A stretch of DNA of 38,723 nucleotides. Origin: a virus. Its lineage: Duplodnaviria > Caudoviricetes. Position 1 is the first letter of the stretch. Each line of letters opens with the position of its first letter. The stretch spans positions 1 through 38,723 of IMG/VR virus record IMGVR_UViG_3300023214_000277; one strand, written 5' to 3'. A program made the translations under genes and the position numbers. The notes under the pieces were generated by a model. The model made no database searches. It was not told the DNA's origin and worked only from the letters and a program-made list of their open reading frames with translations. Positions 1,573 to 24,373 of the stretch are shown here, piece by piece.

Positions 1573-2964
1573 TTAGACGGTGGCGGCCGTGATCTCCCAC
1601 GGCTCGTCACTTGCGGGCAATTCCAGCGCTTCGGCAGCCCCCGCCAAAGCGATACAAAACGCCATCCCTCGATCGCCGTGTCCATAGTCGTCGCGCGGCG
1701 GATCGATCTTAAAACCCCATGACCGCTCCGTGATGTTCAGATGTTGCAAATCACGCAATAACACCTCGTCGTGATACAGATCGACGCGCCGCTCAGTAAA
1801 GACCTGCAGCAGCGCCGAGGCCATCTCGGCATGGTGCCGGGGGGTCATCGTGTATTCGATCAGGTTGGCGCCGATCGATTCGAGCCGCTGGGCCATCAGT
1901 TCGGCTTGGGCCGGATCATAAAGGATCGGACCGCCAAACGTTTCGTGGCAGCGGCGCACCGCCGCCTCGACACGCATCAGCGGGACACGGCCTTCGACCG
2001 GCGCCCACGATCGGCAGTCGACCAGGCGAATGCGCCCCTCCGTGACAGCCAGCGTAACCAGCGCGGCATGATCGCGCTTCGAGGCCAGATCCAATCCGCT
2101 CACACACATCCAGTCGTGATGGCGCCGTGGTGCCGCACTGAGGCGCTCGTCGATCGCCGCCAAAATATCTTCGCGTGCCAGGGCATCGCCTTTGTCCGGG
2201 ACCCATTGTCCCAGCCAGAGACGTTGATAACGATGCGCCGGATTGCGCTGCTGTGACTCGCGCAGATCCTGCCGGCTGATCCAGGGCGCCGGCTGCGAAT
2301 AGGCGGAAAAATCCCACCGCGGCGACTGCTCGGCAATCTGCCTCCAGCGATACTGCCAGGTGTCGAGCACGCCGGCATTGGTCGCGATCAACACGACACA
2401 GTGCGGCACCTTGTCCGCGTCATCAATCAGCGTCTGGGCGAATTGCTCGCGCTGGATATGGGATAGCTCATTGATGAGCACCATCGACGGGCGCGAGCCG
2501 TGCGTTCCATAGGGATCGGCCGTCAGGATATGACAGACCGCCCCGTTACGACGACATTTGATCTCATTGCGGTCGGCGATAATCTGTTCGGACAGTAGGC
2601 GATTGAGCGGCGCACCGACACGCTTTACCGCCTCGATAATCTGCCGCGTCTCCCGCGCTTGGTCCTGATCGTAGGCGCCGACCCGAATGCGGATATCGGC
2701 TTCGGGGTGTCCGAACAGCAACAACCACATGATCGCCAGTGCCAGGTCGGTATCTTTGCTCGCGCCCTTGGTGCGCTCACGCCAAGCACGATTGACCGCA
2801 CAGGGTTGCCGATGCGCGGCGGCCATCAACATCGGTGCCATGGCCGCCAGGTCGCGCTCTTGGAACGCGCACCAATGATCGCCGAATCGGCCGATACCGG
2901 GGATGTGCAAATTCTTGCAAAAAAACAAAAAGTCAGCGGCACAGCGCTGTAAAAAATCGCTCAC
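1573..2964 (-). CDS. terL: Terminase large subunit
   Basis: ATPase motifs RTKGASKDT, VLINELSH and ATNAG; RNase H-like nuclease motifs GLDLASKRD, YDPAQA and HGDRGMA; upstream of portal. Confidence 0.9.
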   Translation of the reverse strand: MSDFLQRCAADFLFFCKNLHIPGIGRFGDHWCAFQERDLAAMAPMLMAAAHRQPCAVNRAWRERTKGASKDTDLALAIMWLLLFGHPEADIRIRVGAYDQDQARETRQIIEAVKRVGAPLNRLLSEQIIADRNEIKCRRNGAVCHILTADPYGTHGSRPSMVLINELSHIQREQFAQTLIDDADKVPHCVVLIATNAGVLDTWQYRWRQIAEQSPRWDFSAYSQPAPWISRQDLRESQQRNPAHRYQRLWLGQWVPDKGDALAREDILAAIDERLSAAPRRHHDWMCVSGLDLASKRDHAALVTLAVTEGRIRLVDCRSWAPVEGRVPLMRVEAAVRRCHETFGGPILYDPAQAELMAQRLESIGANLIEYTMTPRHHAEMASALLQVFTERRVDLYHDEVLLRDLQHLNITERSWGFKIDPPRDDYGHGDRGMAFCIALAGAAEALELPASDEPWEITAATV

Positions 2965-5162: not shown

Positions 5163-5779
5163 CCGACAAATCCACCGGATAAGGTTAAGCGTCGAGTGTA
5201 ATGAGGAAACGGACCCCCGCCGGCCGAGCAGTTTCGCAACAGCAGCCACCCGCCGTTACGAAGCTGCAACGCGCCATCCGACGGCAAGTCATTCCGCAGT
5301 CGCATGGCACACGTGGGAATATTTTCGGTGTAATAAATCTTCATCGGACACCAGTCGATGTCGTAATCGCTCGATCCACTGAGGCGCACCCAAAAGCCGA
5401 ATCCATCCGCATTGACGTCTTCAACCGTGCGACCATCCCAGCCCCATAGGTCGGTGGGCCCGCCGATGACGTTCTGACCGACTGTTAGTGTTTCATCGCC
5501 CTTTAAAGTCCCCAGTTGCCCGCCTGGGTTTTCTCGGAGCTGAATGTTATCGACGTCGGGAATGGTGCCCGCAGAGGGCAAATCAATCATTACCTCGAAA
5601 CCGTCGATCGTTGCTCCCGCCGGCAGTGATGCACCATATTGATGAGGGTGGATATCGCTGAAGGAGGAGGCTGCACTGGCCACCGACGCGTCATCGGCGA
5701 ACACGTTCTCGGGGTCTGTCAGTGCATTGATGAGCACCGGCCCCAGATCCGCCGGATTCAGCCAACCAGTATCGGCCAC
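5156..5779 (-). CDS. Putative virion structural/fibre-associated protein
   Basis: 207 aa; RBS GGAGG; LPAGATIDGFEV and GGPTDLWG segments resemble phage structural beta-rich domains; coupled to neighbours. Confidence 0.55.
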   Translation of the reverse strand: MADTGWLNPADLGPVLINALTDPENVFADDASVASAASSFSDIHPHQYGASLPAGATIDGFEVMIDLPSAGTIPDVDNIQLRENPGGQLGTLKGDETLTVGQNVIGGPTDLWGWDGRTVEDVNADGFGFWVRLSGSSDYDIDWCPMKIYYTENIPTCAMRLRNDLPSDGALQLRNGGWLLLRNCSAGGGPFPHYTRRLTLSGGFVGC

Positions 5780-5781
5780 CG

Positions 5782-6315
5782 TCAGACCTCCAATCCGCGC
5801 TGGAGGGCGCGCACGTCGTCGACGGTCGACGCGTCACGTATCTGCGAAATAACCGTGGCTGCCGTCTGGTAAAGCCCGCGCAACTCGGCAATTCGTGCCG
5901 CGGCGATCGCCCGCAGTGCGGCCACATCCGGCACCGGCACCACGTTGCCCCGTGCGTCGAAAAGACTCACGCCGGCGCCGTTGAAATCGTTGCGGTCATC
6001 GGCCGCAATGTGCGCCTCGCGCAGCGCGTCGCCGCCCAACGCAAACGTCTCGCCGCCGGCACTGAATGTCGACCCGTAAATCCGCTCTCGCAGCTTGCGC
6101 TGCACGGCTACCATCGCCAATCGCTTCTGGCGCCGCAAGCGGAATGCGGCAAAGTCGGGATCGTCGATCATCGCCAGCAGCGTCGCCGTATCGGGCTGCG
6201 CCGCGCCGATCTCCGCCGCGTCCCATGAGTCGATCCGCTCGGCCCGCCCGGCCGGCTTGCCGATCGTGAATCCTTCGGTCACACCGAATTGCCACTGGAT
6301 TAGATCGGCCAGCAC
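5782..6315 (-). CDS. Putative fibre assembly chaperone (XkdW/DUF4376-like)
   Basis: 177 aa directly after the C1q-like fibre gene; N-terminal IDSWDAAEIGAAQP and helical C-terminus ending DASTVDDVRAL. Confidence 0.5.
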   Translation of the reverse strand: MLADLIQWQFGVTEGFTIGKPAGRAERIDSWDAAEIGAAQPDTATLLAMIDDPDFAAFRLRRQKRLAMVAVQRKLRERIYGSTFSAGGETFALGGDALREAHIAADDRNDFNGAGVSLFDARGNVVPVPDVAALRAIAAARIAELRGLYQTAATVISQIRDASTVDDVRALQRGLEV

Positions 6316-7181
6316 TACATGATCTCCTTGATCGAAGCCAACGCATTGCCGCCGCTGGTGACCAGCAAATCGGCAGCCGCACCGGAGTTTTGTTTCAGTC
6401 GCGCATCAACCGTGTCGCCGGCCGCGAGCGATGGAATGTGAAAATCGAAGTGGCCGGCCGAAAAGCCTCCGCCGCTATAGTTGATCCGGCGCAATGCGGA
6501 AAAGACATCATTGATATACAGTTCGCAATCGAATTTTTCGCCGCTGGTCAGGGCCGTATCAATGTTAGCAAACACCTCTAAGTCATAGCTTCCGGCGCGC
6601 TGAACCACGAACTTATTGCCGGCCAGGTTCACCAGGCTGCCGATATCGGATCCGACCGCCTCGTCCCAAGTGACCTGGGTCAGTGTGTTGTTGTTCAAAG
6701 TTTGGGCCGACGTCTGCCTCATGCCGGCCGAGTGCGCGGCGAGATGCTGAGAGAGGATCAGCCACTGGCTGCCATTATAACGACACACCAAGCAGTCAGC
6801 CTCGACGAACATCAGCACATCGGAGCTGCCGCCCAGATCATTACCATTGCCGTCGACCGTGACTTTGTGCTTGGTCGTGCTAGTCGCGCCTTCGGTCCCC
6901 ACATAGACGCCGAAAACAAAATTGGTCGCCGGCGAGGCGGGCAGATCGAGCTCGATGTCGCCGGACGACAGATCGCAGACGACCAGGTCCTGATCGGCGA
7001 TCGCATAGGGAGAATCGGTATTGGCCTTGGCCGTAATCGGCAGTTGCAGGGCGCGGCGAAAATCGGGCAGCAAGATGCCGTACTCTTCGCTGCTATTAAA
7101 GAGCACCACATTGTCGGCCTCGTCGGTCGACGTTTTGGACGCCATCGGATTGGTGCCGGCGACCGAACCGAAACTGCTCAC
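6315..7181 (-). CDS. Putative receptor-binding fibre protein with C1q/TNF-like C-terminal domain
   Basis: AQTLNNNTLTQVTWD...NKFVVQRAGSYDL...LAAGDTVDARL fits a C1q-like pattern; N-terminal VCDLSSGDIELDLPASP module. Confidence 0.65.
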   Translation of the reverse strand: MSSFGSVAGTNPMASKTSTDEADNVVLFNSSEEYGILLPDFRRALQLPITAKANTDSPYAIADQDLVVCDLSSGDIELDLPASPATNFVFGVYVGTEGATSTTKHKVTVDGNGNDLGGSSDVLMFVEADCLVCRYNGSQWLILSQHLAAHSAGMRQTSAQTLNNNTLTQVTWDEAVGSDIGSLVNLAGNKFVVQRAGSYDLEVFANIDTALTSGEKFDCELYINDVFSALRRINYSGGGFSAGHFDFHIPSLAAGDTVDARLKQNSGAAADLLVTSGGNALASIKEIM

Positions 7182-7390
7182 GAGCCCACCTCCACGCGAT
7201 CCAGGCGCCGGCGAACCTCGTCGATCGCCGCACCATTGAGTAGGCTGCGACTTTCGTTATCGACCAGCTTGTCGACGATTTTGATTAGCTGCTGCTGGTT
7301 TGTTTCGATCACGGTAATCCGCCGATCCCAACGAATGAAAAAACCGGCCAACAATACCAAGTGCGCCACGACCGTAAGCCAGTCACGCAT
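7178..7390 (-). CDS. Small membrane protein, holin candidate
   Basis: MRDWLTVVAHLVLLAGFFIRW transmembrane segment followed by coiled coil; stop overlaps next start; start uncertain. Confidence 0.5.
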   Translation of the reverse strand: MRDWLTVVAHLVLLAGFFIRWDRRITVIETNQQQLIKIVDKLVDNESRSLLNGAAIDEVRRRLDRVEVGS

Positions 7391-7451
7391 CCCCAGGCGC
7401 ACGCGGCCGGTATTATCCGAGTCGCCCGACCCACCCTTATCATTGCCGCCC

Positions 7452-8042
7452 TTATCCGGGCCGAAGCAAACGCGCACGCTGATGATCCCATAACAGTGAA
7501 CGGGCCAGGTCGCCCGGGGTGGTGTAACCATTAGGCAGCCACGGCACCGGATCGATGCCGCCGTCGATCGCCGCGGCGCGGCTGACCAGCTCGGAGCAGA
7601 CCGGATCGTCGCCAATCGTATCGGGACGTCTCGGCAAGATCCGGGCCGCCAGCCGTACCAGCGGCGTGCGACGCAAGCCCAGATGCACCAATCGGCGCAG
7701 ACCATACGCACCGCCGGACATTTCGCGTGCCAGGCAGCCGGCCGCAGCCCCGCGAAATCCCGGATAGTGGCGCCGGTCGACCGGCACCCAGCACCACATA
7801 CCCGGATGTGCTTCGACCAGCCGCTCTAAGTTGCGGGTCGCGATGCCCGAGAACAGTGCGCCGGTCGCCTCGATCAGCGGGTCGACCGAGGTGATCAGCT
7901 CGGCGTGACAATAGCTGCTCCGCTCTTCCAGCCGCAGCAGCCAGCCGCGCAGGCTGGTCGGTCGCGCCAGCAGCAGGTCGCCGACGGCGATCTGGTCGAT
8001 CAGCTCCGAGAGCGGCGCGGCGGGTGGCAGGTCGCAGGCCAT
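7452..8042 (-). CDS. Permuted papain-like amidase (YiiX/YaeF-type permuted NlpC/P60)
   Basis: GDLLLAR, SYCHAEL (His before Cys), AYG, VCSELVSRA and TTPGDL motifs. Confidence 0.8.
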   Translation of the reverse strand: MACDLPPAAPLSELIDQIAVGDLLLARPTSLRGWLLRLEERSSYCHAELITSVDPLIEATGALFSGIATRNLERLVEAHPGMWCWVPVDRRHYPGFRGAAAGCLAREMSGGAYGLRRLVHLGLRRTPLVRLAARILPRRPDTIGDDPVCSELVSRAAAIDGGIDPVPWLPNGYTTPGDLARSLLWDHQRARLLRPG

Positions 8043-8102
8043 GGTCTGGTAAATCCCAGATAGTGCAGGACGAAAAAAAGAGAAACACAAATCGGCGGGC
8101 GA

Positions 8103-8588
8103 CTAGGAACCAACCTTGTCTGCCGCTTGGGAAGCTGCGATTTGTGTTTTGGCCCGCTGCAGGCTGGCTTGTTCGTTGAGCCGCGCGTTTTCCGCGACCG
8201 CGGCCCGCTCCGCCTCTTCGACGCGAATCTTATTGTCGACGATCCGCCTAATCTGGCTGGCGAACTCCGGATCGTCATCAATCAGCTTCGGCACCATCGT
8301 TTGGGCCACGCCGCGCAGGTGCGCTCTCAGTTCCGCCGGCTTCAATGACAGATCATAAAACGATTTGAGTTTCTGCATCGCGCCGCTGTAGTCGCCGATC
8401 GCCAGGTCGGTCAGCGCCTCGCCGGCATAGGTGAGTCCGTGGCCGTGCAAAATACGGCCGGTCTCGGCGTAGACCCGGCGCCGCTGCTCTTGGCGGTCAT
8501 CGCGTTTGACGGACAACTTGACGGCCAGGAAAGCAGCGGCAGCCACCGCGATCAACGTGATAATGCCTTGGGGCGTGACGCTAAACAT
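8103..8588 (-). CDS. Membrane-anchored coiled-coil protein
   Basis: ATG 8588 with GGAG RBS; N-terminal TM IITLIAVAAAAFLAV; helical C-terminus. Confidence 0.7.
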   Translation of the reverse strand: MFSVTPQGIITLIAVAAAAFLAVKLSVKRDDRQEQRRRVYAETGRILHGHGLTYAGEALTDLAIGDYSGAMQKLKSFYDLSLKPAELRAHLRGVAQTMVPKLIDDDPEFASQIRRIVDNKIRVEEAERAAVAENARLNEQASLQRAKTQIAASQAADKVGS

Positions 8589-8799
8589 CGTTCTGTCTCT
8601 CCAATGAAAAGTGTTCCGGGTCGTGTTCGTGTCGGTCGCAAACATCCCATGGCTGGCGAGCCGGCATCATTGTGCACGGCGTCGCGTTATCGGGATGCGT
8701 GCATACCAGCGGTATAACATTGTGCGTATTGGCGGCATACCAAATGCACGTCTCACAGCAGAATCCACTTGCTAATTTGTCGGCCACCGAACGAGCCAT
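8581..8799 (-). CDS. Small Cys-rich hypothetical protein
   Basis: 72 aa with CCETC..C..C..C; AAGGA RBS; overlaps next start. Confidence 0.55.
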   Translation of the reverse strand: MARSVADKLASGFCCETCIWYAANTHNVIPLVCTHPDNATPCTMMPARQPWDVCDRHEHDPEHFSLERQNDV

Positions 8800-8807
8800 A
8801 ACAATCC

Positions 8808-9374
8808 TTAGTTGCTGACTCGCCGGCGCATCTCAAAGACAAACCCCAGCCCGGCGGCCAACACGCCCACCGCCACAATCAGCCAGGTCGGATTACGCGA
8901 GGGTGCGGGGACCGGATCGACCGGCGGCTGGGGCTGCGGGTCCAGATCGGGCAGCGGCTCGGCCGGTTGCGGTTGCGGAGCCGGCTGCGGTGCCGGCTGC
9001 ACCGGATCGGCGCGGCGGCGCGGGCAATTAGGGCAAAGCGCCTGTTTGGCAGATTTTGCGAGATCCCAGAAAAGCTGCGTCGAATCGTTAGGAACGTTTT
9101 CGCCCGATCGATAATAGAGCACGCGCCCCGACGCTAATTGCAAACAGACTTGGGGAGATTGTTGCGATCGACCCCAATACTCGCGATAGCGGCGCGACCC
9201 GGTGGTGAATCGGTTGAACCGCGTGCGATCCCGAAACGATCGCAGCCGCTCATCTCCAGAAAACATATCGGCCACCTGGCCACCGTCGTCGACCACCGTT
9301 AGATACATCTTGCCGTCGTCGTCGGGCAACTGCGCGGTCACCGCCGCGGCACACAAAACGAGTGATGCAAACAT
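8808..9374 (-). CDS. Exported protein with signal peptide, Pro/Gln-rich linker and C-terminal membrane anchor
   Basis: ATG 9374 with AGGAG RBS; MFASLVLCAAAVTAQ; CPNCP; PQPAPQPQPAEP; TM WLIVAVGVLAAGLGFVF followed by RRR. Confidence 0.75.
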   Translation of the reverse strand: MFASLVLCAAAVTAQLPDDDGKMYLTVVDDGGQVADMFSGDERLRSFRDRTRFNRFTTGSRRYREYWGRSQQSPQVCLQLASGRVLYYRSGENVPNDSTQLFWDLAKSAKQALCPNCPRRRADPVQPAPQPAPQPQPAEPLPDLDPQPQPPVDPVPAPSRNPTWLIVAVGVLAAGLGFVFEMRRRVSN

Positions 9375-9432
9375 GCCATCTCCTAACAAAAAAACGGAAC
9401 GGGGCGGTTGTGGGTCGTCACCGAAAAGCGGG

Positions 9433-10050
9433 TCAAGCCGCCCTGCGTGGCGGCGGGGGGATGTCGGCCAGGGCGATCGACCAGCCAGACCACTGCCCGG
9501 CGAACTGGTCGATCGTAAGCGTTCGCAGCCGAGCCGGATGATTCGAGTCGAGCAGCACAGCACGGCGCGAGTCGAGCGAGACCAACAGCGCCATATGTCG
9601 GCCGGAGGTCACCAGCTCGACGGCGACCGGATGCCGCAGATCCAGTGCCCGCCGCAAAAACGCCCAATCGCGAAATCCTCGGTCGCGCCAGGCATAGGCC
9701 AGTCGCGAGCCGGCGAGTTTCTTTCGCGTGGTGCGCGGCACCTCGCCGCCGCCATAGACGGCCAGCCACTGCGACGCGACGCTGAACCGGCCATGCCAGC
9801 GCATCGCCGTGGCCAGCGTGGCGTAGACGCAGCTCCCCTCTCCGCGAGCCGCATAATTGGCGACCCGCCAGCGAGCCGGGATGTCGGGCGGCTGCGGATC
9901 GTGATTCGGAATCGGACAGACCCCGCCGGGACAACCTTTTTGTGGGCGGTCCGATCCGCTGGGCACTCCCGGGGAATTCCCAGGCACCTGAGATTCCACA
10001 GTGCATCCGGCCGAAAAGAGACAGACCAAAAAAATCAAAAAAAACTGCAT
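9433..10050 (-). CDS. Lipoprotein, papain-fold (C39-like) cysteine peptidase
   Basis: Lipobox FSAG-C; CPGGVCP; candidate catalytic residues in GSCVYA (Cys), RHMALLV (His) and LLDSN (Asp/Asn). Confidence 0.7.
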   Translation of the reverse strand: MQFFLIFLVCLFSAGCTVESQVPGNSPGVPSGSDRPQKGCPGGVCPIPNHDPQPPDIPARWRVANYAARGEGSCVYATLATAMRWHGRFSVASQWLAVYGGGEVPRTTRKKLAGSRLAYAWRDRGFRDWAFLRRALDLRHPVAVELVTSGRHMALLVSLDSRRAVLLDSNHPARLRTLTIDQFAGQWSGWSIALADIPPPPRRAA

Positions 10051-10109
10051 AATCCGGTTTCCCCGCGCCGAAGTCTCTGTTAGGCTACTTCCGCCGGCAG
10101 TGCGACACG

Positions 10110-10149
10110 TGGGCAAAAGACGCACCCGTGGTGCCGTGGTGAGGGTGGT
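10110..10149 (+). repeat. Left copy of perfect 40-bp inverted repeat
   Basis: TGGGCAAAAGACGCACCCGTGGTGCCGTGGTGAGGGTGGT is the exact reverse complement of 14990-15029. Confidence 0.95.
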
Positions 10150-10179
10150 TTGCCTGTTTCGCCCTGTCCCGGCAAAACA

Positions 10180-10207
10180 ACTATGCGCCATAGATTGCCT
10201 ATGTCAA
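10180..10207 (-). promoter_or_regulatory. Putative sigma70 promoter pointing outward across the left inverted repeat
   Basis: Minus strand TTGACA-16 nt-CATAGT with an A/T-rich tract upstream. Confidence 0.55.
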
Positions 10208-10304
10208 AAACTCGCCCAAATTTTTTTCGCGATCCACGCAGGGAGTGCGTCGGTGTGGGCACGGAGGCCCATTTTTTTCATCGCGCTGGCGGCGGGGAAA
10301 CGAC

Positions 10305-10511
10305 GTGAATAGCACCGATCTGACGATCGACTTTCGTGGCGTCGAGCTATCAGTGAGGGATTTTCCGCGCACCCTGCAGGGATGGGTCGCGTTCACAATC
10401 GCCTTTAGCGGCAATGTGGCGTGCCGGAACAAAGCGGCAGCGATGAAAGTATTGCTCAGTCAAGCCGAGGCGATTATTGAGCAAGTCAAGACGGGGGAAG
10501 CGCCCCCGTAA
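10305..10511 (+). CDS. Hypothetical protein
   Basis: GTG start after GGGGAAA; 68 aa. Confidence 0.5.
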   Translation: MNSTDLTIDFRGVELSVRDFPRTLQGWVAFTIAFSGNVACRNKAAAMKVLLSQAEAIIEQVKTGEAPP

Positions 10512-10640
10512 CCCGCTCAAGTGCATCTTCCAAACCGCGATGTCTGCCCGGCGCGGGGGACGGCCGTATCCGCGTGCGGCAGCGCCGGCAGCATCGTGGT
10601 TGGCCGTGCAGGTGTCGTCCCGAATAGATGAGGGTTGAGT

Positions 10641-10988
10641 ATGGCGTCGGAATCCTCGAAACTGCGGCGCGAAAAGTATATCACCTACAGCAGCGCGCGC
10701 CGCTGTGGTGTGCACCTGATTCACTCGCCCGAGTGCGGGCACTATCTGGAGACGATCGGCGGACCGTGTGTCGTGCGGTTCGCCGTTGGTCGCGGCGTCG
10801 GCGCCACACTACGCCACGTCGGCGTGGTGTATTGTCGCCGCTGTCACTTCGAGCCGCAGCGCCATCCACGCATGATCTACGCGCACCAGCTCGTCGGATT
10901 GACCGACTATGAAGCCTTCTTGCGCTGCGCACTCGATGCGGCCTGGGAGTCCATCCAGACAATCACCCAGCCACGATGGTGCCGCTGA
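10641..10988 (+). CDS. Hypothetical Cys/His-containing protein
   Basis: ATG after GAGGG; YCRRCH motif. Confidence 0.5.
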   Translation: MASESSKLRREKYITYSSARRCGVHLIHSPECGHYLETIGGPCVVRFAVGRGVGATLRHVGVVYCRRCHFEPQRHPRMIYAHQLVGLTDYEAFLRCALDAAWESIQTITQPRWCR

Positions 10989-11014
10989 CTACCTGCGATA
11001 TCTCAGATACCCGT

Positions 11015-11479
11015 TTACGGCAGCTCCCGGCCGTCGGGCAACTCGACGCTGCCGGGCCACTGCGTCGGATAGACGCCACGTTCGGCGCGGTGCGCCGGCA
11101 CGATCTCGACCGCGACGACCAGAATGCGGACGGTCCACCGTGGTTGCCGATCATTGACGATCTGACCCAGCACCGCGGCCAGGCCACTGGAGTGGACCAG
11201 CGGATCGACGCCGACAGTGAGGATGTCGGCGTAGACGATGTCATGCGGCACGCCGACCTCCAGCACCTGCTCAACCCAGCGGATCAGCGCCGCTTCCGGC
11301 GCGGCGCCGGAAAGGTCGTGGTGGACCTGGGCACCGGGGATGCCCTGGTCGGGATAGGGCAGCGCGATCCGCAGCAGTTTGCCGTTGGCGATCTCTTTGC
11401 GCTGCCGGCCGGAGAGCCGGTAGCGAATGCCCTGTGATTTCTCAGGCACTGGTATATCCCCCTTAGTTCGTGAGTTCAC
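11015..11479 (-). CDS. Hypothetical protein
   Basis: 154 aa; GTGA overlap with the upstream gene. Confidence 0.55.
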   Translation of the reverse strand: MNSRTKGDIPVPEKSQGIRYRLSGRQRKEIANGKLLRIALPYPDQGIPGAQVHHDLSGAAPEAALIRWVEQVLEVGVPHDIVYADILTVGVDPLVHSSGLAAVLGQIVNDRQPRWTVRILVVAVEIVPAHRAERGVYPTQWPGSVELPDGRELP

Positions 11480-11727
11480 CGCTGCTCGGCGCGCAGGCGC
11501 CGAACCAAGCTGGCCAGCCGTCTCGACTCTCTCGCCGATCGCTCGGCAGCGGCGGCGACCGCGGCGTCCAGCACCAGCGCGCGAATCCAGTCGCTGCCTT
11601 TGTGCTGGCGGAGCTCGTCGAGGATCCGCTTTTCGGCGCGCGAGACACAGATCCCATACGTCTCGCGCCGCGGATGCCGGAGCTTCGGCCGTCCGACCCG
11701 GGCCGTTTTCCCCTGTTTTGTAGGCAT
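11476..11727 (-). CDS. Small DNA-binding protein (GRPK hook plus ribbon-helix-helix-like)
   Basis: GRPKLRHPRRETYGICVSRAEKRILDEL...SDWIRALVL; divergent from promoter at 11781. Confidence 0.6.
   Translation of the reverse strand: MPTKQGKTARVGRPKLRHPRRETYGICVSRAEKRILDELRQHKGSDWIRALVLDAAVAAAAERSARESRRLASLVRRLRAEQR
11591..11705 (+). repeat. 115-bp direct repeat, copy 1
   Basis: 107/115 identical to 12973-13087. Confidence 0.95.
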
Positions 11728-11780
11728 TTTTGCTCGTTCTCGCTCGCGGAAAAAAATCTAGAAAAAATACCGCTGGCCTA

Positions 11781-11808
11781 TTGACGGGGCCGCTAAAGAG
11801 TATAGACT
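11781..11808 (+). promoter_or_regulatory. Putative strong sigma70 promoter
   Basis: TTGACG-16 nt-TAGACT, upstream A-tracts, downstream AAGGAGG RBS and ATG 11847. Confidence 0.7.
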
Positions 11809-11846
11809 ATATTCCAGTCGAGGGCAAAAGCACGAAGGAGGAAACG

Positions 11847-12530
11847 ATGGCGAAGAGCGAACCCACACGCCGGATACCTGGCGTGACTGACGAGCGGATC
11901 ATCCGAGGTTTTTTCGGCCGGCGGGCCAGACCCTATGACTATACTGTCACGGCCGAGGATTTTGACCGCGACGATAACGAGGGACCTGGACACTACGTCG
12001 GCATCACGGTGCCGGCCAGCCTCGCGGATCGATGGGACGCCGGCATCATCGCGTGCCGGCGACGCAAAGTTGGCAGCCGCAGCCCCGAGGGGCTACTGAT
12101 CCGGTATCGGATCATGGCAGCCGATGATACGGCCGATCTGCCGCCGGCGCTGGCCGCATATCTGGCCGCGAAAGAGGCCGCGGCCGAGAAACAGGCCGCG
12201 GCCAAGCGCAAAGCCGCGGCCGAGAAACAGGAGGTGGACCGTCTGCTCGACGGGTTGCGGGCAACAAGCGTAGAGCCCGCTCCCGGGGACTGCACGTTTG
12301 GCGGTCCGGGGATGCAGAGGCTCGACCGCGGAGACACGACCTATCTGGAGGGGCGGACGGCGGACGGACGACGCATCGTCCGCGAGGACTGTCGCGGATA
12401 TGACGACTGTCGCACATATTATCATGCTCCGCATGATATCGCTGTAGCATGGGCCATGGCCTATGCCGCGCGCCAGGGCATCACGCCTGAGCGAGCCCAT
12501 GAGTGCATCGGCAGGTGGTTGTCGCGGTAG
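11847..12530 (+). CDS. Hypothetical (probably early) protein, 227 aa
   Basis: Consensus RBS and promoter; central Ala/Lys helix. Confidence 0.75.
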   Translation: MAKSEPTRRIPGVTDERIIRGFFGRRARPYDYTVTAEDFDRDDNEGPGHYVGITVPASLADRWDAGIIACRRRKVGSRSPEGLLIRYRIMAADDTADLPPALAAYLAAKEAAAEKQAAAKRKAAAEKQEVDRLLDGLRATSVEPAPGDCTFGGPGMQRLDRGDTTYLEGRTADGRRIVREDCRGYDDCRTYYHAPHDIAVAWAMAYAARQGITPERAHECIGRWLSR

Positions 12531-12608
12531 TGACCTGCATCGAGCGGTCGCCGGCCTGTGATATCCCAGGTAGTTTTTCTAGCGGCCGAAGGCCGCATAG
12601 CAAGGAGG

Positions 12609-12761
12609 ATGGCAGTGACGGAAGTGATGGTCCACGTGGACCGAGACGCGGCTATCCGCCGCGGTATCAACGGCACCAATTCGCCGGTGCTGGTATCTCT
12701 CGACGTGGCGGCGATTTCGCCAGAGGATCGCGGACGACTGATCGTGTGGCCGCGTGACTAG
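12609..12761 (+). CDS. Short hypothetical protein, possibly truncated
   Basis: AAGGAGG RBS before ATG/GTG; ~50 aa. Confidence 0.45.
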   Translation: MAVTEVMVHVDRDAAIRRGINGTNSPVLVSLDVAAISPEDRGRLIVWPRD

Positions 12762-12972
12762 TGATATGCTGCGGGGCCGCGCCGGCCCCATTGAAGCCGA
12801 GGTGCGCGAAGAGCTTCGAGCCACCTGGGCGGCTCATTCCGGCGCGGCCCTCTTTTTTCCAGCCTGGGATATCCCGGTGACCCTGCGATATCCCAGTGAC
12901 TGCACTACTCTCGCCGCAAAAACTCCGCGCGGCCGGTCAACTGATAGATCGCCGCGCGCAGGAACGAGCGGC

Positions 12973-13087
12973 TCGCTGCCTTTGTGCTCGCGGAGCTCGT
13001 CGAGGATCTGTTTTTCCGCGCGCGAGACACAAATCCCATACGTCTCGCGCCGCGGATGGCGAAGCTTCGGCCGGCCGACCCGGGCCG
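12973..13087 (-). pseudogene. Start-less paralogous fragment of the 11476-11727 DNA-binding gene (direct repeat copy 2)
   Basis: Encodes ARVGRPKLRHPRRETYGICVSRAEKQILDELREHKGS; no in-frame ATG/GTG/TTG before the upstream stop near 13260. Confidence 0.75.
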
Positions 13088-13135
13088 CTGCCCATTGCCC
13101 GTGCTGGGCAGCGATTGAGTAACCTGGGATTTTAC

Positions 13136-13462
13136 CTAGGCGGAGTCGGAAGGCAATGTTGACTGCACTTTTGCTGGCCCTTGCAACTGCTCCAGATGCA
13201 CCTGGATCCGCTGCAGGTACGCGGTCATAGCCGCCTCTTCCTCCTGCACCTTGACAGCGTCAATCCGGAGATACCCCAGAATCGCCTTGTTCACGTCCCA
13301 CTCTGCAGGCGGGCCGGTAATGCCCGAATCCCTGTGGTTTTCCTTGGCCCAGGCCAGAAACGCCTCCAGGAATGCGATGGTGTCCTTTTTGCGTCGCAGA
13401 CGCCGCAGCTGCGGCACATCAGGTGGTAGCAGATCAATCTCGTCGGGGGCCGTCTCAGTCAC
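13136..13462 (-). CDS. Hypothetical protein
   Basis: 108 aa; GTGA overlap with the PAPS-reductase-like gene. Confidence 0.65.
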   Translation of the reverse strand: MTETAPDEIDLLPPDVPQLRRLRRKKDTIAFLEAFLAWAKENHRDSGITGPPAEWDVNKAILGYLRIDAVKVQEEEAAMTAYLQRIQVHLEQLQGPAKVQSTLPSDSA

Positions 13463-14448
13463 GTAGGGCCTCCACAGGTCTTGAATGCACCCAGGGGGAG
13501 CCGCCAGATCCTTGCCCCGACGTACGTCCTCCTCGGCCGGTATGGAATCACACCCAGGGCGATCTCCCGAAGTTCCCGCGAATCGCGCGGCAGGAAGGAC
13601 TTCCCACGGTCTGCGAGCTGCGTCACATCAACTGCCTGACGAATCGTGCATCCGAATTCGATCTCATACGTCGCGATTCGCCGGAACCACGCGGGCGACA
13701 GCTCGCGTAACGAGGCCCACTGGTCGGAATCGCCGAAGATGCAGCTCATGCATGACACCCGGCCCCAGCCCAGTTTATAGGCCGGGTGCGGGTCCACCCG
13801 GTAACGATGGAGGAGCTCCCAGACCCGTTCCTCGGGCCAGTCAATAATGACACGCCAATGATCGACCCGCCGGCTTTGACTGTTACAGCGGTGCTTCTCC
13901 ATCTCCGCATACTTGCTTCGCGCGGCGGACTCCTGCCGCCGCTCGCCCGTCACGAAGAGAATCTTGGCGTTGCGGAACGCCGGGTCGTTGTTAAGCGCCC
14001 GGGCCGCGACATCGATCTTGAGGTAGGCGGAACACCACCTCACTTTCAGGTCCGCCGAGACCTGCGGGAACTTCCGCCGGGTCGAGCGCTTTCCCGTCGT
14101 GCCACCGACTGTGCTTGTTGTGCCGTCCTGCCGCTGGAACCGCACCGGATTCGTCCGCCTGTCCTCCCGTAGCATCTCGGCCTTAAAGCCACCGCTCCGC
14201 CCCTGGAAGAAAGTCTTCACACCGAACGTCTCACCAAAGGCTGCGCAATACTCTGGCGTACAAGGCCAGTCCATCAGCGGCACGCCATTATCAACGTCCT
14301 GGTGCCAAAGCTGGATCTTCGCGTCGGGGACGCCCAGGTCCAGCATGTGTAGATAACACGCCGTGCTGTCTTTACCCCCGGAGAACGACACGATCACATA
14401 GTCGTACTCATCGAGAGGCAGAATCTCCGTCGTATTCGGCCGTGGCAT
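13459..14448 (-). CDS. Phosphoadenosine phosphosulfate (PAPS) reductase family PP-loop protein
   Basis: VSFSGGKDS, RWCSAYLK, GERRQESAAR and HPAYKLGWGRVSCMSC motifs. Confidence 0.88.
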   Translation of the reverse strand: MPRPNTTEILPLDEYDYVIVSFSGGKDSTACYLHMLDLGVPDAKIQLWHQDVDNGVPLMDWPCTPEYCAAFGETFGVKTFFQGRSGGFKAEMLREDRRTNPVRFQRQDGTTSTVGGTTGKRSTRRKFPQVSADLKVRWCSAYLKIDVAARALNNDPAFRNAKILFVTGERRQESAARSKYAEMEKHRCNSQSRRVDHWRVIIDWPEERVWELLHRYRVDPHPAYKLGWGRVSCMSCIFGDSDQWASLRELSPAWFRRIATYEIEFGCTIRQAVDVTQLADRGKSFLPRDSRELREIALGVIPYRPRRTYVGARIWRLPLGAFKTCGGPT

Positions 14449-14471
14449 CGCGATTCCCACCTAAATCGAAG

Positions 14472-14936
14472 TTACGTGGTACGGACGTCATTCCACCTGC
14501 TGGAACTCTTTGTTACTCTTTCGCCGACCACCCGGCCCGCGAAGGATCGCGTTGTCGCGCATAGATACGGGTCGGTCGAGCCGGCCCCCATCTCGATGCG
14601 TCGCTCACGCCAGGCCCGCAGATCGGCGAGCGTTGCCGCGTCCCACCACAGCGGCACATCCCGGCCGCGGCCCCGTCGCCGACCATCCCGCTGGGACACA
14701 CGCTTGGTCGCTTCCGGTCGCACACGGATATGCGGCCGCTCATCGAGGCAGGCGACGTCGGCCAGTCGCAGCGCCACCATCTCACCGACGCGAAGACCGC
14801 AGCAGACGGCCAGCCGCACGATGGTCAGCGTGCAGCGATTGCCGGCCGTATCTGCCCTCTCCCGCATATCCGTGATGATGCGACCGATCTCACCGGCCGT
14901 CAAAATGCGCCTCGCCGCTATGGATCTCTCAGCCAA
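14472..14936 (-). pseudogene. C-terminally truncated minimal tyrosine recombinase
   Basis: Box I CGLRVGEMVALRLADV, ATK lysine loop and RDVPLWWD are present; no HxxR, GH or catalytic Tyr; no N-terminal arm-binding domain. Confidence 0.8.
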
Positions 14937-14968
14937 CCGGCCACCCGCTCAGTGAAGATCAGTGCACC

Positions 14969-14985
14969 ATCGATATTATATCGAT
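14969..14985. promoter_or_regulatory. AT-rich palindrome between recombinase start and right inverted repeat
   Basis: ATCGATAT-T-ATATCGAT. Confidence 0.45.
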
Positions 14986-14989
14986 CGTC

Positions 14990-15029
14990 ACCACCCTCAC
15001 CACGGCACCACGGGTGCGTCTTTTGCCCA
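14990..15029 (-). repeat. Right copy of perfect 40-bp inverted repeat
   Basis: ACCACCCTCACCACGGCACCACGGGTGCGTCTTTTGCCCA. Confidence 0.95.
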
Positions 15030-15400
15030 GCGTGTGCACCCCCGAGCGCTTCGCCTGTCACTCTCACAGGGCCCCAGACGTCGTGTGAGGCGATCCGTAG
15101 GGGGTCGGCGTATGATTTGACTCGGTCGCAGCCGCACGGCCTTACACGGCCGCTGAGGCGTTCTCGCCGCTTGCCATGCCAAGTCACCGACAAATACCAG
15201 ATCCCTGAGAAATCCCAGGGCCAGGCCAACCCCGCCATCAGACCCGATCAGCACCGGCCAGGGCGAAGCCGCGAAGCGGTCGGATCCGCTCGCCCGAGTC
15301 CCTACACGACTCGGCAACCCAAACAAAACCCCGGGAAAAACCGCACATCCGCCGCAAAGCGGCGCACCAGGCGGCGCACCGGGGACTGATCGGCAGTGCG

Positions 15401-15859
15401 TCAGCCAGGGGGATCGGGCGTCGCCGGCCGCGCGTCGACCACCTGCCAGGCGTCGGTTGGCGTGGTCTCCAGGTCCAGCGCGGCAATCGACTTGTCCCGC
15501 CTCTCGCTCGCCGCCGCAATCTCGCGCACGTGCTGCAGTCGCTCGGTCGGCGATAGATCAGCATGGTGGTGCCGCAGGTAGTACGCCGCCAACAGCGAGA
15601 CGCGCTCCCACCGCACCGCCGTGGTGATCCGTGCCGACTCGGCAATCGTCAGATCCACCGGCCCGACCGTCTCGGACCCCCTTCGCTGATCGAGCACCGC
15701 GGCCGTCAGCGTCGCCTTCAGCCGATTTGTCAATGTCGTGATATACCCCGCTCCGGGCGGCAATCGCCCGGTCGAAAATCCATGCTTCAGCGCGTTGCGA
15801 TTTCCTTTCGGCGCGCCGGCTCCGGGCCGCGCTCCGCCCCGACGATCCGCATCACCCAT
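15401..15859 (-). CDS. Terminase small subunit-like protein
   Basis: GGARPGAGAPKGNRNALKHG motif typical of TerS N-termini; RBS AGGGGG. Confidence 0.65.
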   Translation of the reverse strand: MGDADRRGGARPGAGAPKGNRNALKHGFSTGRLPPGAGYITTLTNRLKATLTAAVLDQRRGSETVGPVDLTIAESARITTAVRWERVSLLAAYYLRHHHADLSPTERLQHVREIAAASERRDKSIAALDLETTPTDAWQVVDARPATPDPPG

Positions 15860-16177
15860 TTTATCCCCCTGTGATTTCCCAGGTACGTTCCCAATAATGT
15901 TTACCAATTCGGTGAACATTGATTGTCCGGCCGCCCGCGCATCAGCGCGGCCGCGCGGGTGCGCCTTCGCCTGGTGAGTCGCCTTCGACTGGCGTCATCC
16001 CCCGATCCCTCCCAAGCCACACAGGTAGACGAATCGCCACCAACCGCCGCCCCTGATACCAGTGTCGATCCCGGCCGTCGGCATACCAGTACGGCGAGGC
16101 GGGCAGCACGGACATCGGCAGCAGTGTCCGCGAACAGTGCCGTCCTACCACTTCGATCGAGCGCGGCGGCACGACCT

Positions 16178-16513
16178 TCAGCCGTCCATCGACGTGATAC
16201 CAGCGATATGGCCCTCGCCGGCCGCGCCTCGATCCCGATCCGGTTTCCACTCGATTTGGCATATCAGCTCCCCCTCGCTGTCGAAGATGGCCAAGCATCT
16301 GCGATTTCGCAGTGCCAGGGCCAGCGGCAGATACCGCGCCTGCCCGTCGGACTTTACCTGTAGCACCGCTTCGCCGAGCCGGTCGCGTGCCAACTCCCGT
16401 TTCGCATCTGGCATCCGAATCAGTTTCGCCACAGCACAGGCCAGACAGACAAGCTTATGATTCGCCGAACGCAAATAAAGCGTACATCCGCACTCATCGC
16501 ACCCTGCCATCAA
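16178..16513 (-). CDS. Hypothetical zinc-finger-like protein
   Basis: CDEC...CLAC; AAAGGGGG RBS. Confidence 0.5.
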   Translation of the reverse strand: MMAGCDECGCTLYLRSANHKLVCLACAVAKLIRMPDAKRELARDRLGEAVLQVKSDGQARYLPLALALRNRRCLAIFDSEGELICQIEWKPDRDRGAAGEGHIAGITSMDG

Positions 16514-16538
16514 ATTCGCCCCCTTTCGAAACTGCAGG

Positions 16539-16739
16539 TGTCCGGGTTGTCCGCGTTGGCTGGGTAGTTTTCACTCGCTCGCTGTTTTGCACGGTTATCA
16601 CTTGTTTTTTTTCAACGCAATGAGTGGGAAACTACCCAGACAACCCGGACACCTAATATCTAACTTCTCGCCAGAGACGAGTTTAAGTATGTCCGGGTTG
16701 TCGCCTATCAACCCGGACACTACCCAGACAACCCGGACA
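16539..16739. repeat. Iteron array, putative replication origin
   Basis: CAACCCGGACA x5 (16539-, 16641+, 16690-, 16709+, 16729+), CTACCCAG x3, T-rich spacer, directly downstream of the primase-helicase. Confidence 0.75.
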
Positions 16740-16761
16740 ATTTTTATTGGACTTACATCAA

Positions 16762-19164
16762 TCACCCCTGAATCTCCGAAATACCGACATAACACCACAA
16801 CCGCTGACCCGCAACGGTAATGCGGCCTCGCGCGATTTTGGGGTCCAAACCGAAGTGTCGATATACCTCGCCGGCAAACTTATTCGCCGCCAGCGGACGA
16901 CTATGACCCGTCTCAGAACACCACACTTTGTACTGTTGATAGACGGCGCGCACGACCGCAAAACCATCAGGATCGGCCCGATAGTGCTCATGCAAAAAAA
17001 GACGCGCGGGGTTATTTTCGATTTCGTAGCCTCGGCGCGCCTCGGCGCAGATGTCCGGCTCTTCGAAATATCCGCGCTGTCCGAGCCGGTGCCGGCCTTC
17101 GAGCGCCCACTGCAAAATCCCAGGCAACTCGCCCTGCTCGGCCCACCACCGCGCGTCGGTCAAGGCCGGATCGACTTCGTGATGCGGTATCTGCACGGTC
17201 CACGGCAGCAGGATCAAGCGCCGCCAAACACCCATCGAGCGATCCCGGATCGTGGGCAACTGATTGGTCGCGACGATCAATTTTGCGGTTGGCGTCGAAG
17301 AAAACGCGCCCTTGAATTTTCGCTCGAACTGCATCCGGTCCCCGCCCGTCCAACTTTTTAGTATGCCTTCGGCGACGCGGTCGATTTCTCCCGAATCACC
17401 GGCAATATTGGCGAGCTTGCCGTAGGTTTGGACCAGCGAAAACTTTTCGCCGATCCGATCCAGCCCGACGTGACTCACGTTCTCGCTTCCTAACACCGCC
17501 TCTAACACGGCCGAAAAAACCCCCTTGCCGTTACGACCTGCGCCTTGGAGTAGCAAGAATTTTTGCAATCGGGTCCCGGCGGTCAAACAGTATCCGATCC
17601 ACTCGGCCAGGAAGCGAATGACCTGCTGATCTCCGGCGAGATTGCGCTCGAGAAATCGATGCCATCGGGGACATTCCGCGCCGGCCCGGTATTCATACGG
17701 CAGCCCCACAGCGCTGAACCACCGCGGGCTGAGCGGCTCCATGATGGGCGGATGCTGATCGAGATCCAGAATCCCATTGGCGACGGCCAACAGATTGCGA
17801 TGCCGGCGCTGGTCGTCGTCGATCCAGATCGGCTGATCGACGTCGGCGGGCACACCGACCAGCGAGCGCAGGGCCCGCACGACGTTCGTCGTCAGGCTGC
17901 CGGTCACCTTCCGCGCGATCCCCGCATTGTCCTTGTCTTCGACGGCCAGGCGGTCGAATTCGTCTTTGATGGCGATCTGCAGTTTCCATTGCAGATCCTC
18001 GTCGGCCAGCACCCGGTAACAGGGACCGACCCACCGCCACCACTCGCTGCGCCAATACCGCAGATCGTGCCCATGACGCTGGCGATACTGATCGACGCAG
18101 ATGCGCGCCAAACGAAACGGATCGTCGGGACTTTCCACCGCTTCGCTGGCCGAGGGTGCCGCATCGCGTGAAAACGTCTCCGCCTGGCCGGCCAGGGCAT
18201 CCAGCTCCGAAACACTGTGATCACACAGATAATCGCGCAGATCGCGCCCGTGATGCTCTGCGATCTCATATGGCAGCCGGACCAGCCGAACCCGCGCGGC
18301 ATGCTCGGCCAGCTCAGGACACCATCCGGGACGCTTCCGGCCACCCCGATCAATCCGATACGTCGCCCCCTCGATGCCGGGCCGGTCGGCGTCCGGAACC
18401 ACCACGACATCGCACTCGGCCAGCATCTCGGCCAGCGGTCCGGCTCGCTCCATCGCGCCGAATGCGCCGGTCACCACGATGCGGCCCGGATCGGCGGATA
18501 GCAGGGCCAAGGCGTCGGTCGGTCCCTCCGTCTTCCAGACTTCGGCGCCCGGCGCGATCCCTTCGACCGTGCCGATCAGACCAGCGCGGGACCCGGCCAG
18601 GGTCAGGATCTTCGCCGACCCGCGACCGGCCGGTAAAGTCGAGCCATCCAGAGCCATCAGCACCCAGCCGACGACCGGCCCGCCGGTCAGCTTCGGACCA
18701 TAGATCGGCAGCGCGATGACGCGATGCGTGCCGGCATAAACGGCACACTGGCCATGGACCAGCCTGATCCCCGCCGGCGAGATGGGCGGCTTTTGCTGGC
18801 ACCAGCGCGCGACCGCGATCCGGTTATACGGCCGAAATTCGAGCAGATCGAGCCGCAGCCGTTTTCGCGGTCGACTGCGAAATCCCAGATAATCGGCAAT
18901 TTTTTGTAGCGACTCGCGAAAAGAACAACCGGTCATCCAGCCGACCGCGGCGATTCCGTCGCCATTACGCTCGCGAAAACACTGGTTGCAAAGCACGGCG
19001 CCGCACTGGCGATCGACCAGGCGAAAACGGTCGGATCCGCCGCAGCGCGGGCAGCCGTGATGCCGGCCGTCGAGCAGCTCCGGCTCGATGCCGGCGACCG
19101 CCGCCAAGATTTCCGGCCAGCGCCCGGCAGCCGCCGCCTTGATGTCGCGCGCCTCAATTCTCAT
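16762..19164 (-). CDS. P4-alpha-like primase-helicase (zinc-binding, TOPRIM, D5/SF3 helicase)
   Basis: CPRCGGSDRF...CNQC; TEGPTDAL; PDADRPG; GAGRNGKG Walker A; ATNQLP; WRRLILLPW. Confidence 0.92.
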   Translation of the reverse strand: MRIEARDIKAAAAGRWPEILAAVAGIEPELLDGRHHGCPRCGGSDRFRLVDRQCGAVLCNQCFRERNGDGIAAVGWMTGCSFRESLQKIADYLGFRSRPRKRLRLDLLEFRPYNRIAVARWCQQKPPISPAGIRLVHGQCAVYAGTHRVIALPIYGPKLTGGPVVGWVLMALDGSTLPAGRGSAKILTLAGSRAGLIGTVEGIAPGAEVWKTEGPTDALALLSADPGRIVVTGAFGAMERAGPLAEMLAECDVVVVPDADRPGIEGATYRIDRGGRKRPGWCPELAEHAARVRLVRLPYEIAEHHGRDLRDYLCDHSVSELDALAGQAETFSRDAAPSASEAVESPDDPFRLARICVDQYRQRHGHDLRYWRSEWWRWVGPCYRVLADEDLQWKLQIAIKDEFDRLAVEDKDNAGIARKVTGSLTTNVVRALRSLVGVPADVDQPIWIDDDQRRHRNLLAVANGILDLDQHPPIMEPLSPRWFSAVGLPYEYRAGAECPRWHRFLERNLAGDQQVIRFLAEWIGYCLTAGTRLQKFLLLQGAGRNGKGVFSAVLEAVLGSENVSHVGLDRIGEKFSLVQTYGKLANIAGDSGEIDRVAEGILKSWTGGDRMQFERKFKGAFSSTPTAKLIVATNQLPTIRDRSMGVWRRLILLPWTVQIPHHEVDPALTDARWWAEQGELPGILQWALEGRHRLGQRGYFEEPDICAEARRGYEIENNPARLFLHEHYRADPDGFAVVRAVYQQYKVWCSETGHSRPLAANKFAGEVYRHFGLDPKIARGRITVAGQRLWCYVGISEIQG

Positions 19165-19552
19165 GCGGTTCGATCAACTCCCGATATCCGGCCGGCGCCG
19201 GAAAGTGCGGCAGCGGTCCCACTGGCTCGCCGTCGGGCTGGTCCGGATCACTCCATCCCCGATCATCCTCGCCGACACCGCGCTGGAAATAGGCGATCAA
19301 AAAGGCGACGGCGCAGGCCGCGTGCTGCAGATGCAAAAGGCCGCTTTCGGTATCATGATCCTGGCCGGACCAAAAGGCATTCATGTGGCGCAGTGCGGCG
19401 CCATAATAGCGCGACCAACGCATGCCCCGCGCCCAATTGTGATCTCCGTATTTTGCGGCGCCGTGCGTCAGCACCTCGCCTAGTCCCTCGATCATCTCCG
19501 GCGGGATCAATTCGAGCCTGTTTTTTCCCCGATCATGCTTTTTTCCCTGCAT
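19154..19552 (-). CDS. dATP/dGTP diphosphohydrolase-domain protein (DUF5664-like)
   Basis: KHDRGKNRLELIP, GAAKYGDHNWARG, AALRH and DTESGLLHLQHAAC motifs. Confidence 0.85.
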   Translation of the reverse strand: MQGKKHDRGKNRLELIPPEMIEGLGEVLTHGAAKYGDHNWARGMRWSRYYGAALRHMNAFWSGQDHDTESGLLHLQHAACAVAFLIAYFQRGVGEDDRGWSDPDQPDGEPVGPLPHFPAPAGYRELIEPHEN

Positions 19553-19556
19553 CGCA

Positions 19557-24360: not shown

Positions 24361-24373
24361 CTCTGCACATCTC

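Follow-up and report, generated by a model that had tools for sequence, protein, structure and literature searches.

In the pdif (or dif) modules of Acinetobacter plasmids, the substrates of XerC/XerD, a segment lies between inverse two-armed sites with a 6-bp spacer, and identical spacers are the stated condition for inversion (PMC13141974). The fimS, ipuS and hyxS switches have a promoter within an inverted-repeat segment and a short tyrosine recombinase nearby (FimB, FimE, FimX, IpuA or IpuB); as presented in PMC6083910, their repeats are 7-16 bp long, the enzymes have an intact RHRY set, ipuS measures 260 bp, and recombinase action in trans is known. The phage systems covered by PMC6109161, Rin (tyrosine) and Gin, Cin and Min (serine), combine a phage-encoded recombinase with inverted crossover sites and alter tail fibres, swapping the C-termini of receptor-binding proteins within coding sequence. 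Here we describe a 4.9-kb block between inverted repeats in a tailed-phage record (IMG/VR IMGVR_UViG_3300023214_000277), the whole of which (38,723 nt) was analysed and is called the window below.

The closest functional analogue of the block would be an invertible dif module served by its own enzyme: a module lies between what appear to be inverse two-armed sites with a 6-bp spacer, and relatives of the recombinase encoded in the block sit in arrays of two-armed sites. Unlike pdif arms, the arms in this recombinase family vary with recombinase clade and, as far as tested, do not come from host XerC/D; they also differ from the arm table in PMC13141974. A dedicated enzyme of ~210 aa beside the site, a phage carrier and 22 extra identical bases in the window are further differences. 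The block shares its general layout with fimS-type switches, but it is 4.9 kb long and carries cargo, its repeats are 40 bp, and its truncated enzyme is inside the segment. As in Rin, Gin, Cin and Min, a recombinase is phage-encoded and sites are inverted; however, both repeat sites are intergenic, inversion would alter no coding fusion, and no fibre-like gene was found within the block in library scans or the list of open reading frames (ORFs). A first-pass annotation of this DNA likewise set the block apart from Gin/Cin tail-fibre swapping. Our overall assessment is that the structure is real, that it is plausibly a former inversion substrate, and that a working switch is unsupported. We give about even odds (roughly 0.5) to the block being a module bounded by inverted crossover sites of its own compact enzyme, formerly flippable and now frozen with its promoter facing the run of genes from a lipoprotein to the terminase large subunit (terL).

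A long inverted repeat and a truncated recombinase

The block is enclosed by an exact 40-nt inverted repeat (10110-10149 and 14990-15029). The longest exact inverted repeats in 20 Markov resamples of the window were 14-18 nt, and the second longest in the real window is 16 nt, which places the 40-nt repeat far above the chance maximum. A CCGTGGTG tandem and a GCACC-N3-GGTGC dyad are both found in the repeat sequence, as first reported. The ~10 further bases of imperfect similarity said to lie outside it do match, but only with two 1-nt shifts. The bases outside the two repeats are inversely similar to each other, with no direct target duplication.

Among three listed sequencing runs, only one (X1, a DNA run and possibly the source) holds the window DNA, with next to none of it in the other two (X2 and X3), which were left out of the evidence. 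Contig joints and loose ends with sides of 20-23 nt, which belong to contigs of other organisms, were likewise disregarded. In the Logan contigs of X1 the repeat is a separate 40-nt contig with a depth of 20.6, and the four flanking contigs (depth 6.2-10.5) stop where a 31-mer graph would break. Both repeat copies and all four junctions are present in these contigs. The first-pass annotation had itself named an assembly artefact as a possible refutation; the separate 40-nt node argues against an artefact of one assembler. Depth inside the block (6.2-8.2) compares with 6.6-10.5 outside, indicating neither excess nor loss of the inside. From 5000 to 20000, X1 contigs differ from the window only by four substitutions at 8502-8512. 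No copy of the block or of the repeat was found outside the window.

A tyrosine recombinase gene begins 54 nt inside the right repeat, in agreement with the ~55 bp first given. Its product matches the profile of a compact family, described below, with an E value of 9.5e-41, and comprises the N-terminal two thirds, with CCGLR and LWWDAxTL motifs. It had been called minimal; instead, it is truncated. The match spans profile positions 5-137 of 212, and no counterpart of the rest came up when all six frames of the window were searched with a C-terminal profile. With HxxRH, the second His and Tyr gone, this enzyme cannot catalyse inversion. A Logan contig of X1 is identical to the window base for base across the truncation junction. 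An intact PAPS-reductase-family gene begins 24 nt past the recombinase stop and likely belongs to the sequence that took the place of the recombinase 3' end.

Two ways of rescuing the enzyme were considered and rejected. Read-through or frameshifting would use a post-stop 'HGR' that overlaps the PAPS-reductase start; the N-terminal sequence of that gene product is conserved in a homologue with 79% identity on a 28.6-kb Logan contig (P0110), and the C-terminal profile is empty in all frames. Completion by flipping, as described for ipuA in PMC6083910, does not apply, as the repeat lies upstream of the gene. A perfect 17-bp palindrome between the right repeat and the recombinase gene was rejected as a crossover site, the left end having no copy of it.

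A promoter match, TTGACA-16-CATAGT, lies 30 nt inside the left repeat and is directed outward, as the first-pass annotation had it. Of 16 consensus matches window-wide, this and one other agree at 10 of 12 positions. The next minus-strand match in the lipoprotein-terL run is at 6562, with none in between, and the genes from 10050 to terL are closely packed, with small gaps downstream of the promoter match. The claim that this promoter feeds a peptidase-fibre-terL-portal-head-tail run may hold for the packed lipoprotein-to-terL part, but not for the head and tail genes, which lie at the opposite contig end and have promoter-like matches of their own at 36441 and 34369. The labels 'lysis' and 'fibre' found no backing, as no ORF between the left repeat and terL matches Pfam, PHROGs or NCBIfam; for the 762-aa ORF read as a fibre, Atlas gives leads only, all below 0.9. 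For the lipoprotein that heads the run, 'C39-like peptidase' is a tentative label based on a Cys-His-Asp/Asn motif; it has no library match and no solved-structure match, and its relatives come from 42 viral loci.

A compact recombinase family and its 12-6-12 site

The family as defined here consists of compact tyrosine recombinases (~210 aa) in mobile elements, phages and satellites, of Planctomycetota. One search returned 108 homologues of the window recombinase and another 439, the best 38-51% identical and those of full length mostly ~210 aa. Intact members have a catalytic domain only, without a core-binding domain; they carry the full R-K-H-R-H-Y set, the pentad as it is defined in PMC8138268, and match the catalytic domains of XerA, XerD and XerH. 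XerC models fit them better than do NCBIfam invertase models, which gave E values of 0.0018 and 0.038 in two of three members tested (13.6-17.8 bits, against cut-offs of 221-222). The window does have a segment bounded by inverted repeats, as FimB/FimE substrates do, but its enzyme fails to show the complete catalytic set (RHRY, or RKHRH-Y) of those recombinases. It has no invertase-model match either, and the usual state in its relatives is one site beside the gene, or site arrays with differing spacers. These data speak against the FimB/FimE-type assignment made at first.

We collected 175 recombinase loci, screened the 118 of at least 4 kb for inverted repeats, and compared 138 dereplicated upstream regions. 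A 12-6-12 dyad (two 12-nt arms around a 6-nt spacer) is found in 93 of the 138, at a median of 123 nt before the gene, and is followed by a conserved promoter-like element. In the outer arm, 67 of 100 double changes remain complementary, a count inflated by sites having been picked partly on symmetry, and the arms differ by recombinase clade. In 23 of 35 close pairs (many of them from one organism), the homology break falls between 10 nt before the site and the site end; homology mostly stops at the recombinase stop codon. Hence, the shared unit is the site plus the recombinase gene. ParB-methylase, terminase small subunit (terS)-like and terL genes are recurrent neighbours of this unit, usually just upstream, and Planctomycetota genomes often hold several family copies.

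A stand-alone recombinase with its site is also seen in Cre/loxP of phage P1 and in resolvase-plus-res modules, where resolution needs direct repeats or a single site. The family unit resembles these in being one dyad and a stand-alone gene, often just downstream of terminase genes. It differs in having no core-binding domain, and the window differs in having two inverted copies of the site.

Since spacers differ between sites, further sites were sought with a position weight matrix (PWM). At a loose cut they were found in 29 of 94 loci; a stricter cut gave 2 matches in 1.38 Mb of shuffles. In genome-wide pattern searches, totals at three mismatches were not above the reversed control, and only matches with one or two mismatches, together with a PWM scan with shuffled controls, were used. 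The Gemmataceae genome G008 was represented by 35 stretches chosen for pattern matches or the gene (L025, L027-L029, L243-L262 and L271-L281). These contain 58 sites in 539 kb, compared to 3 in shuffles, and nine spacers cover 46 of them. Sites fall inside long ORFs in 4 of 58 cases, versus 324 of 525 random positions, and, of 383 alignment ends, 48 are no more than 25 nt away from a site (0.7% expected). We read the dyad as a crossover site serving module exchange and infer, from adjacency and covariation, that the compact enzyme is the catalyst.

Intergenic arrays of such dyads, a few kb apart and with recurring 6-bp spacers often in constant order, were observed in G008 and also in L126, L128 and G411. 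The G008-type arrays look like a spacer-coded gene-module exchange system tied to the compact tyrosine recombinase, and they may be of more interest than the block itself. The firmer gain here is the family. Phages and satellites throughout the Planctomycetota carry its compact tyrosine recombinase together with a 12-6-12 site that covaries with it, and at least one Gemmataceae genome has multiplied the site into dozens of module joints coded by their spacers. Recombinase and site form a pair open to direct testing, in a phylum for which dif sites could not be predicted (Planctomycetes, PMC3025954).

Other members of the family occur in varied settings. Two proviruses (L003 and L004, the latter cut at the gene start) have the recombinase, variable cargo, the same lipoprotein as in the window and then probably terL, with no long repeat. 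Dense short direct and inverted repeats lie 1-2 kb downstream of the recombinase in both (L003, 2477-2950; L004, 1916-2170). A small circular element (L005 in G003; 13.5 kb, 127-nt terminal repeat) has an intact family recombinase and no long inverted repeat; this recombinase lies 1.2 kb upstream of a terL gene whose product is 34% identical to the window terL. Across L001-L175, the site-plus-recombinase unit is most often found directly after ParB-methylase, terS-like and terL genes, in small Planctomycetota elements with a primase and a serine recombinase (for example L035, L045, L047 and L068), which suggests an undescribed type of phage satellite. In four loci (L049, L053, L055 and L115) the core is downstream and convergent. 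Finally, G007:C1 6614800-6637300 (L189 and L190) holds two direct copies of site and recombinase, 88.7% identical over 683 nt and with the same 30-nt site; they lie 21.8 kb apart, with a 4094-aa protein among the cargo they enclose, and may form an excisable unit.

Was the block invertible?

The site register of the window repeats was inferred from these relatives. With a relatives-based score, frame 15041-15012 ranks first of 150 upstream of the recombinase, and its spacer begins at the first base of the exact repeat. The best window frame is at -99 from the gene and has a core score of 4, below the threshold of 5 that the 93 relatives had to reach. Of the relatives, L034 has the arms closest to those of the window. 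The initial 8 nt of the repeat agree with the modal family spacer plus AA at 7 of 8 positions, a level reached at 47 of 77446 background positions; the octamer occurs in 17 of the 93 relatives. The two predicted window spacers are identical when compared in inverted orientation, but agree at 4 of 6 bases when compared directly. GTGC-N18-GCAC is present at both block ends and just once more in the window, and no window-type site at internal module borders of the window scores near the two ends. From these sequence comparisons, we consider it probable that the repeats are family dyad crossover sites. On that assignment, the pair has the arrangement that undergoes inversion in the pdif system, inverted sites sharing a spacer, and the geometry first proposed is therefore sound.

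If each repeat does start at the 6-bp spacer of a family dyad, the rule for Xer-type sites, in the form given in PMC13141974, is that inverse sites with the same spacer invert the intervening DNA. Both sites would be restored after a flip, since their inner arms do not differ. It would move the promoter away from the lipoprotein-terL run to face terS head-on, and would leave the recombinase its TATAAT-containing palindrome. The claim that inversion detaches the recombinase from transcription is thus not clearly borne out, as the palindrome and the inner 22 nt of the repeat would travel along. Given the separate promoter-like matches of the head and tail genes, a flip would affect packaging rather than the late programme as a whole. 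As the enzyme is dead, the orientation seen in the assembly, presumably the productive one, should not change except through a paralogue acting in trans. Flipping would more likely have been a by-product of module shuffling than a programmed decision on virion production. Of the idea that a promoter-bearing segment inverts, there remain what look like inverted crossover sites with identical spacers and a predicted promoter that would turn from the lipoprotein-terL run; the enzyme to do it has lost its catalytic C-terminus. GC skew inside the block shifts with gene direction and is uninformative on orientation history.

Several observations weigh against a formerly flippable module. By family PWM, the right site ranks 1344 of 77386 and the left site in the same register 11015 of 77386; the best family-score frame of the left end is one base off. 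Arm symmetry is 6 of 12 at each end, a value reached by 7.6% of random frames, and other registers give 7-8 of 12. The 22 identical bases past the inner arm are unexplained, and the window enzyme stands on a long branch, with 38-51% identity to its nearest relatives, so that its site is extrapolated. Inversion by the compact family was never seen in any relative: among the 118 loci, exact inverted repeats that have an arm no more than 300 nt from the gene never exceed 17 nt, a result that holds for the 78 with sufficient DNA on either side. Inverted same-spacer site pairs within a stretch number 0 of 34 and 0 of 7, where for the same-spacer pairs of G008 about 3 of 34 would be expected by our arithmetic; the window pair is an exception in a family that seems otherwise to avoid same-spacer pairs. 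In G411 (L017 and L263-L270; 15 sites), 0 of 79 alignment ends fall at sites. Lastly, a host recombinase rather than the compact enzyme could act on the dyads, the enzyme being linked to them by adjacency only.

The first-pass annotation had gone further, to a working on/off switch for virion production, and had suggested comparing the segment in relatives. That comparison gave no example of the arrangement among the 118 recombinase loci or the 42 lipoprotein loci, and with the catalytic C-terminus lost we do not uphold this part. A related possibility, which we regard as unlikely, is a programmed packaging switch, phase-variable now or recently, for which an intact paralogue in the host or in a satellite now supplies the enzyme in trans. 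In its OFF state the lipoprotein-terL run would be cut from the promoter, which would be aimed head-on into terS. The rank and position of the promoter match, the lack of another before 6562 and the small gaps downstream would suit such a switch, as would the several family copies common in Planctomycetota genomes, the ability of distal recombinases to invert fimS (as PMC6083910 presents it), and the still identical 40 nt, as if recently used or selected. However, the block's own enzyme is dead, its layout is found in no relative, the head and tail genes have their own promoter-like matches, and 4.9 kb with about eight cargo ORFs is far from the Fim-type dimensions cited above from PMC6083910. 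No paralogue with matching arms was identified, and the window-site pattern gave chance-level matches only in 401 genomes of the phylum. It is equally doubtful that a temperate phage co-opted a module-shuffling crossover site for a packaging inversion switch, in which one orientation would drive the lipoprotein-terL genes and the other would disconnect them and fire the promoter antisense into terS, with the sequenced genome locked ON or flipped by a host paralogue. A genuine and tuned flip would let the phage hedge its bets between a productive and a silent prophage; the current case is one genome with a dead enzyme. No report on the compact family, or on inversion gating terminase genes, was found in the open literature, which is not proof of absence.

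An inserted mobile cassette seems rather improbable. Here the repeats would be terminal inverted repeats, and the block would have come in, with its own recombinase, between terS and the late genes by insertion and excision rather than inversion, its outward promoter keeping downstream genes expressed. The cargo-like block, with mixed gene orientation, promoters of its own and an internal 115-nt direct repeat, has the look of such a cassette; the recombinase is the first gene inside one end, and cargo varies between recombinase and lipoprotein in the two proviruses. Yet the outside bases are similar in inverse orientation, and the spacers agree fully only when inverted. Similar depth inside and outside and the absence of further copies also count against insertion. 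The block does not look like an insertion sequence or transposon: there is no direct target duplication, and library scans found no transposase match in the window.

Less probable again is a duplicated regulatory element, either an operator or a hairpin plus T-run terminator, at both ends and unrelated to inversion. The repeat does hold a terminator-like hairpin on the path of the outward transcript, plus three GTGGTG-like units. An operator role is conceivable because the dyad of the relatives abuts a conserved promoter-like element, and the PWM match of the window sites is weak. This reading does not account for identity beginning exactly at the family spacer, and in G008 the sites lie between unrelated modules with recurring spacers and alignments ending there, which crossover sites fit better. 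An unreal repeat or a segment mis-oriented by the assembler is very improbable: depth is low (6-10), the sample is single and 31-mer contigs leave the pairing of flanks with ends open, but the junctions and the 40-nt node are there, and an arbitrary orientation would itself imply two coexisting forms.

Genes of the block and the phage setting

Table 1. Coordinates of sites, promoter matches and genes in and around the block
Feature	Coordinates	Strand	Remarks
terL, terminase large subunit	1573..2964	minus	end of the lipoprotein-headed run
Lipoprotein with Cys-His-Asp/Asn motif	9433..10050	minus	first gene outside left site; heads packed run to terL
Left site (predicted)	10098..10149	plus	outer arm 10098-10109; predicted 6-bp spacer 10110-10115; inner arm 10116-10127; identical extension 10128-10149
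sigma70-like promoter match TTGACA-16-CATAGT	10180..10207	minus	outward through left site; consensus match only
Small cargo ORFs	10308-10511, 10635-10988; 11015-11479	plus; minus	no family matches
83-aa probable Arc/ribbon-helix-helix (RHH) protein	11476..11727	minus	Atlas 0.92-0.93 to viral clusters, one named Arc-like; lead only
Promoter-like TTGACG-16-TAGACT (11781-11808) and 227-aa gene (11847-12530)	11781..12530	plus	strong ribosome site; between two direct repeats
Partial second copy of small DNA-binding gene	12973..13087	minus	115 nt, 93%
108-aa ORF	13136..13462	minus	coupled to PAPS-reductase gene; no family match
PAPS-reductase-family gene, intact	13459..14448	minus	2858 homologues; weak DndC similarity
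Compact tyrosine recombinase, C-terminally truncated	14472..14936	minus	catalytic Arg and Lys kept; no HxxRH, second His or Tyr
Perfect 17-bp palindrome with TATAAT (14980-14975)	14969..14985	minus	upstream of recombinase; possible -10 box or operator
Right site (predicted)	14990..15041	minus	outer arm 15041-15030; predicted spacer 15029-15024; inner arm 15023-15012; extension 15011-14990
Probable terS, terminase small subunit	15401..15919	minus	outside right site; NCBIfam NF040601, E 0.0019, under model cut-off
Integrase and excisionase	22855-24577		same direction as all other genes; directly before AAA_24 gene

The features discussed are collected in Table 1. The PAPS-reductase-family gene may serve DNA modification. 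For the 83-aa protein, Atlas scores to RHH Pfam clusters are 0.88-0.89. A direct repeat (11591-11705 and 12973-13087; 115 nt, 93%), made up of Arc/RHH-like gene sequence, brackets a 1.3-kb unit in a manner resembling a nested insertion. This unit has its own promoter, strong ribosome sites and the only three GATATCCC motifs of the window (12560, 12868 and 12887).

The record is a near-complete temperate tailed phage. Almost all of its genes are on the minus strand; they include portal, terL, primase, integrase, excisionase, tape measure and capsid genes. It is a linear contig interrupted within the portal gene, and its ends do not join in frame. All homologues of the small recombinase being from Planctomycetota records, this is the likely host phylum. 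No close phage relative turned up in viral scans that used the recombinase, a stretch of the repeat or terL as query, near-identical records possibly having been excluded by the scan. The integrase (22855-24360) is full-length (501 aa), with an arm-binding domain and a long C-terminal tail; it was rejected as the source of the small enzyme or as the driver in its place, there being no sequence similarity between them. No repressor gene was identified. An AT-rich stretch after the primase (16530-16760) contains ACTACCCAGACAACCCGGAC-type units in both directions (40-nt repeat, 80%) and is a candidate replication origin.

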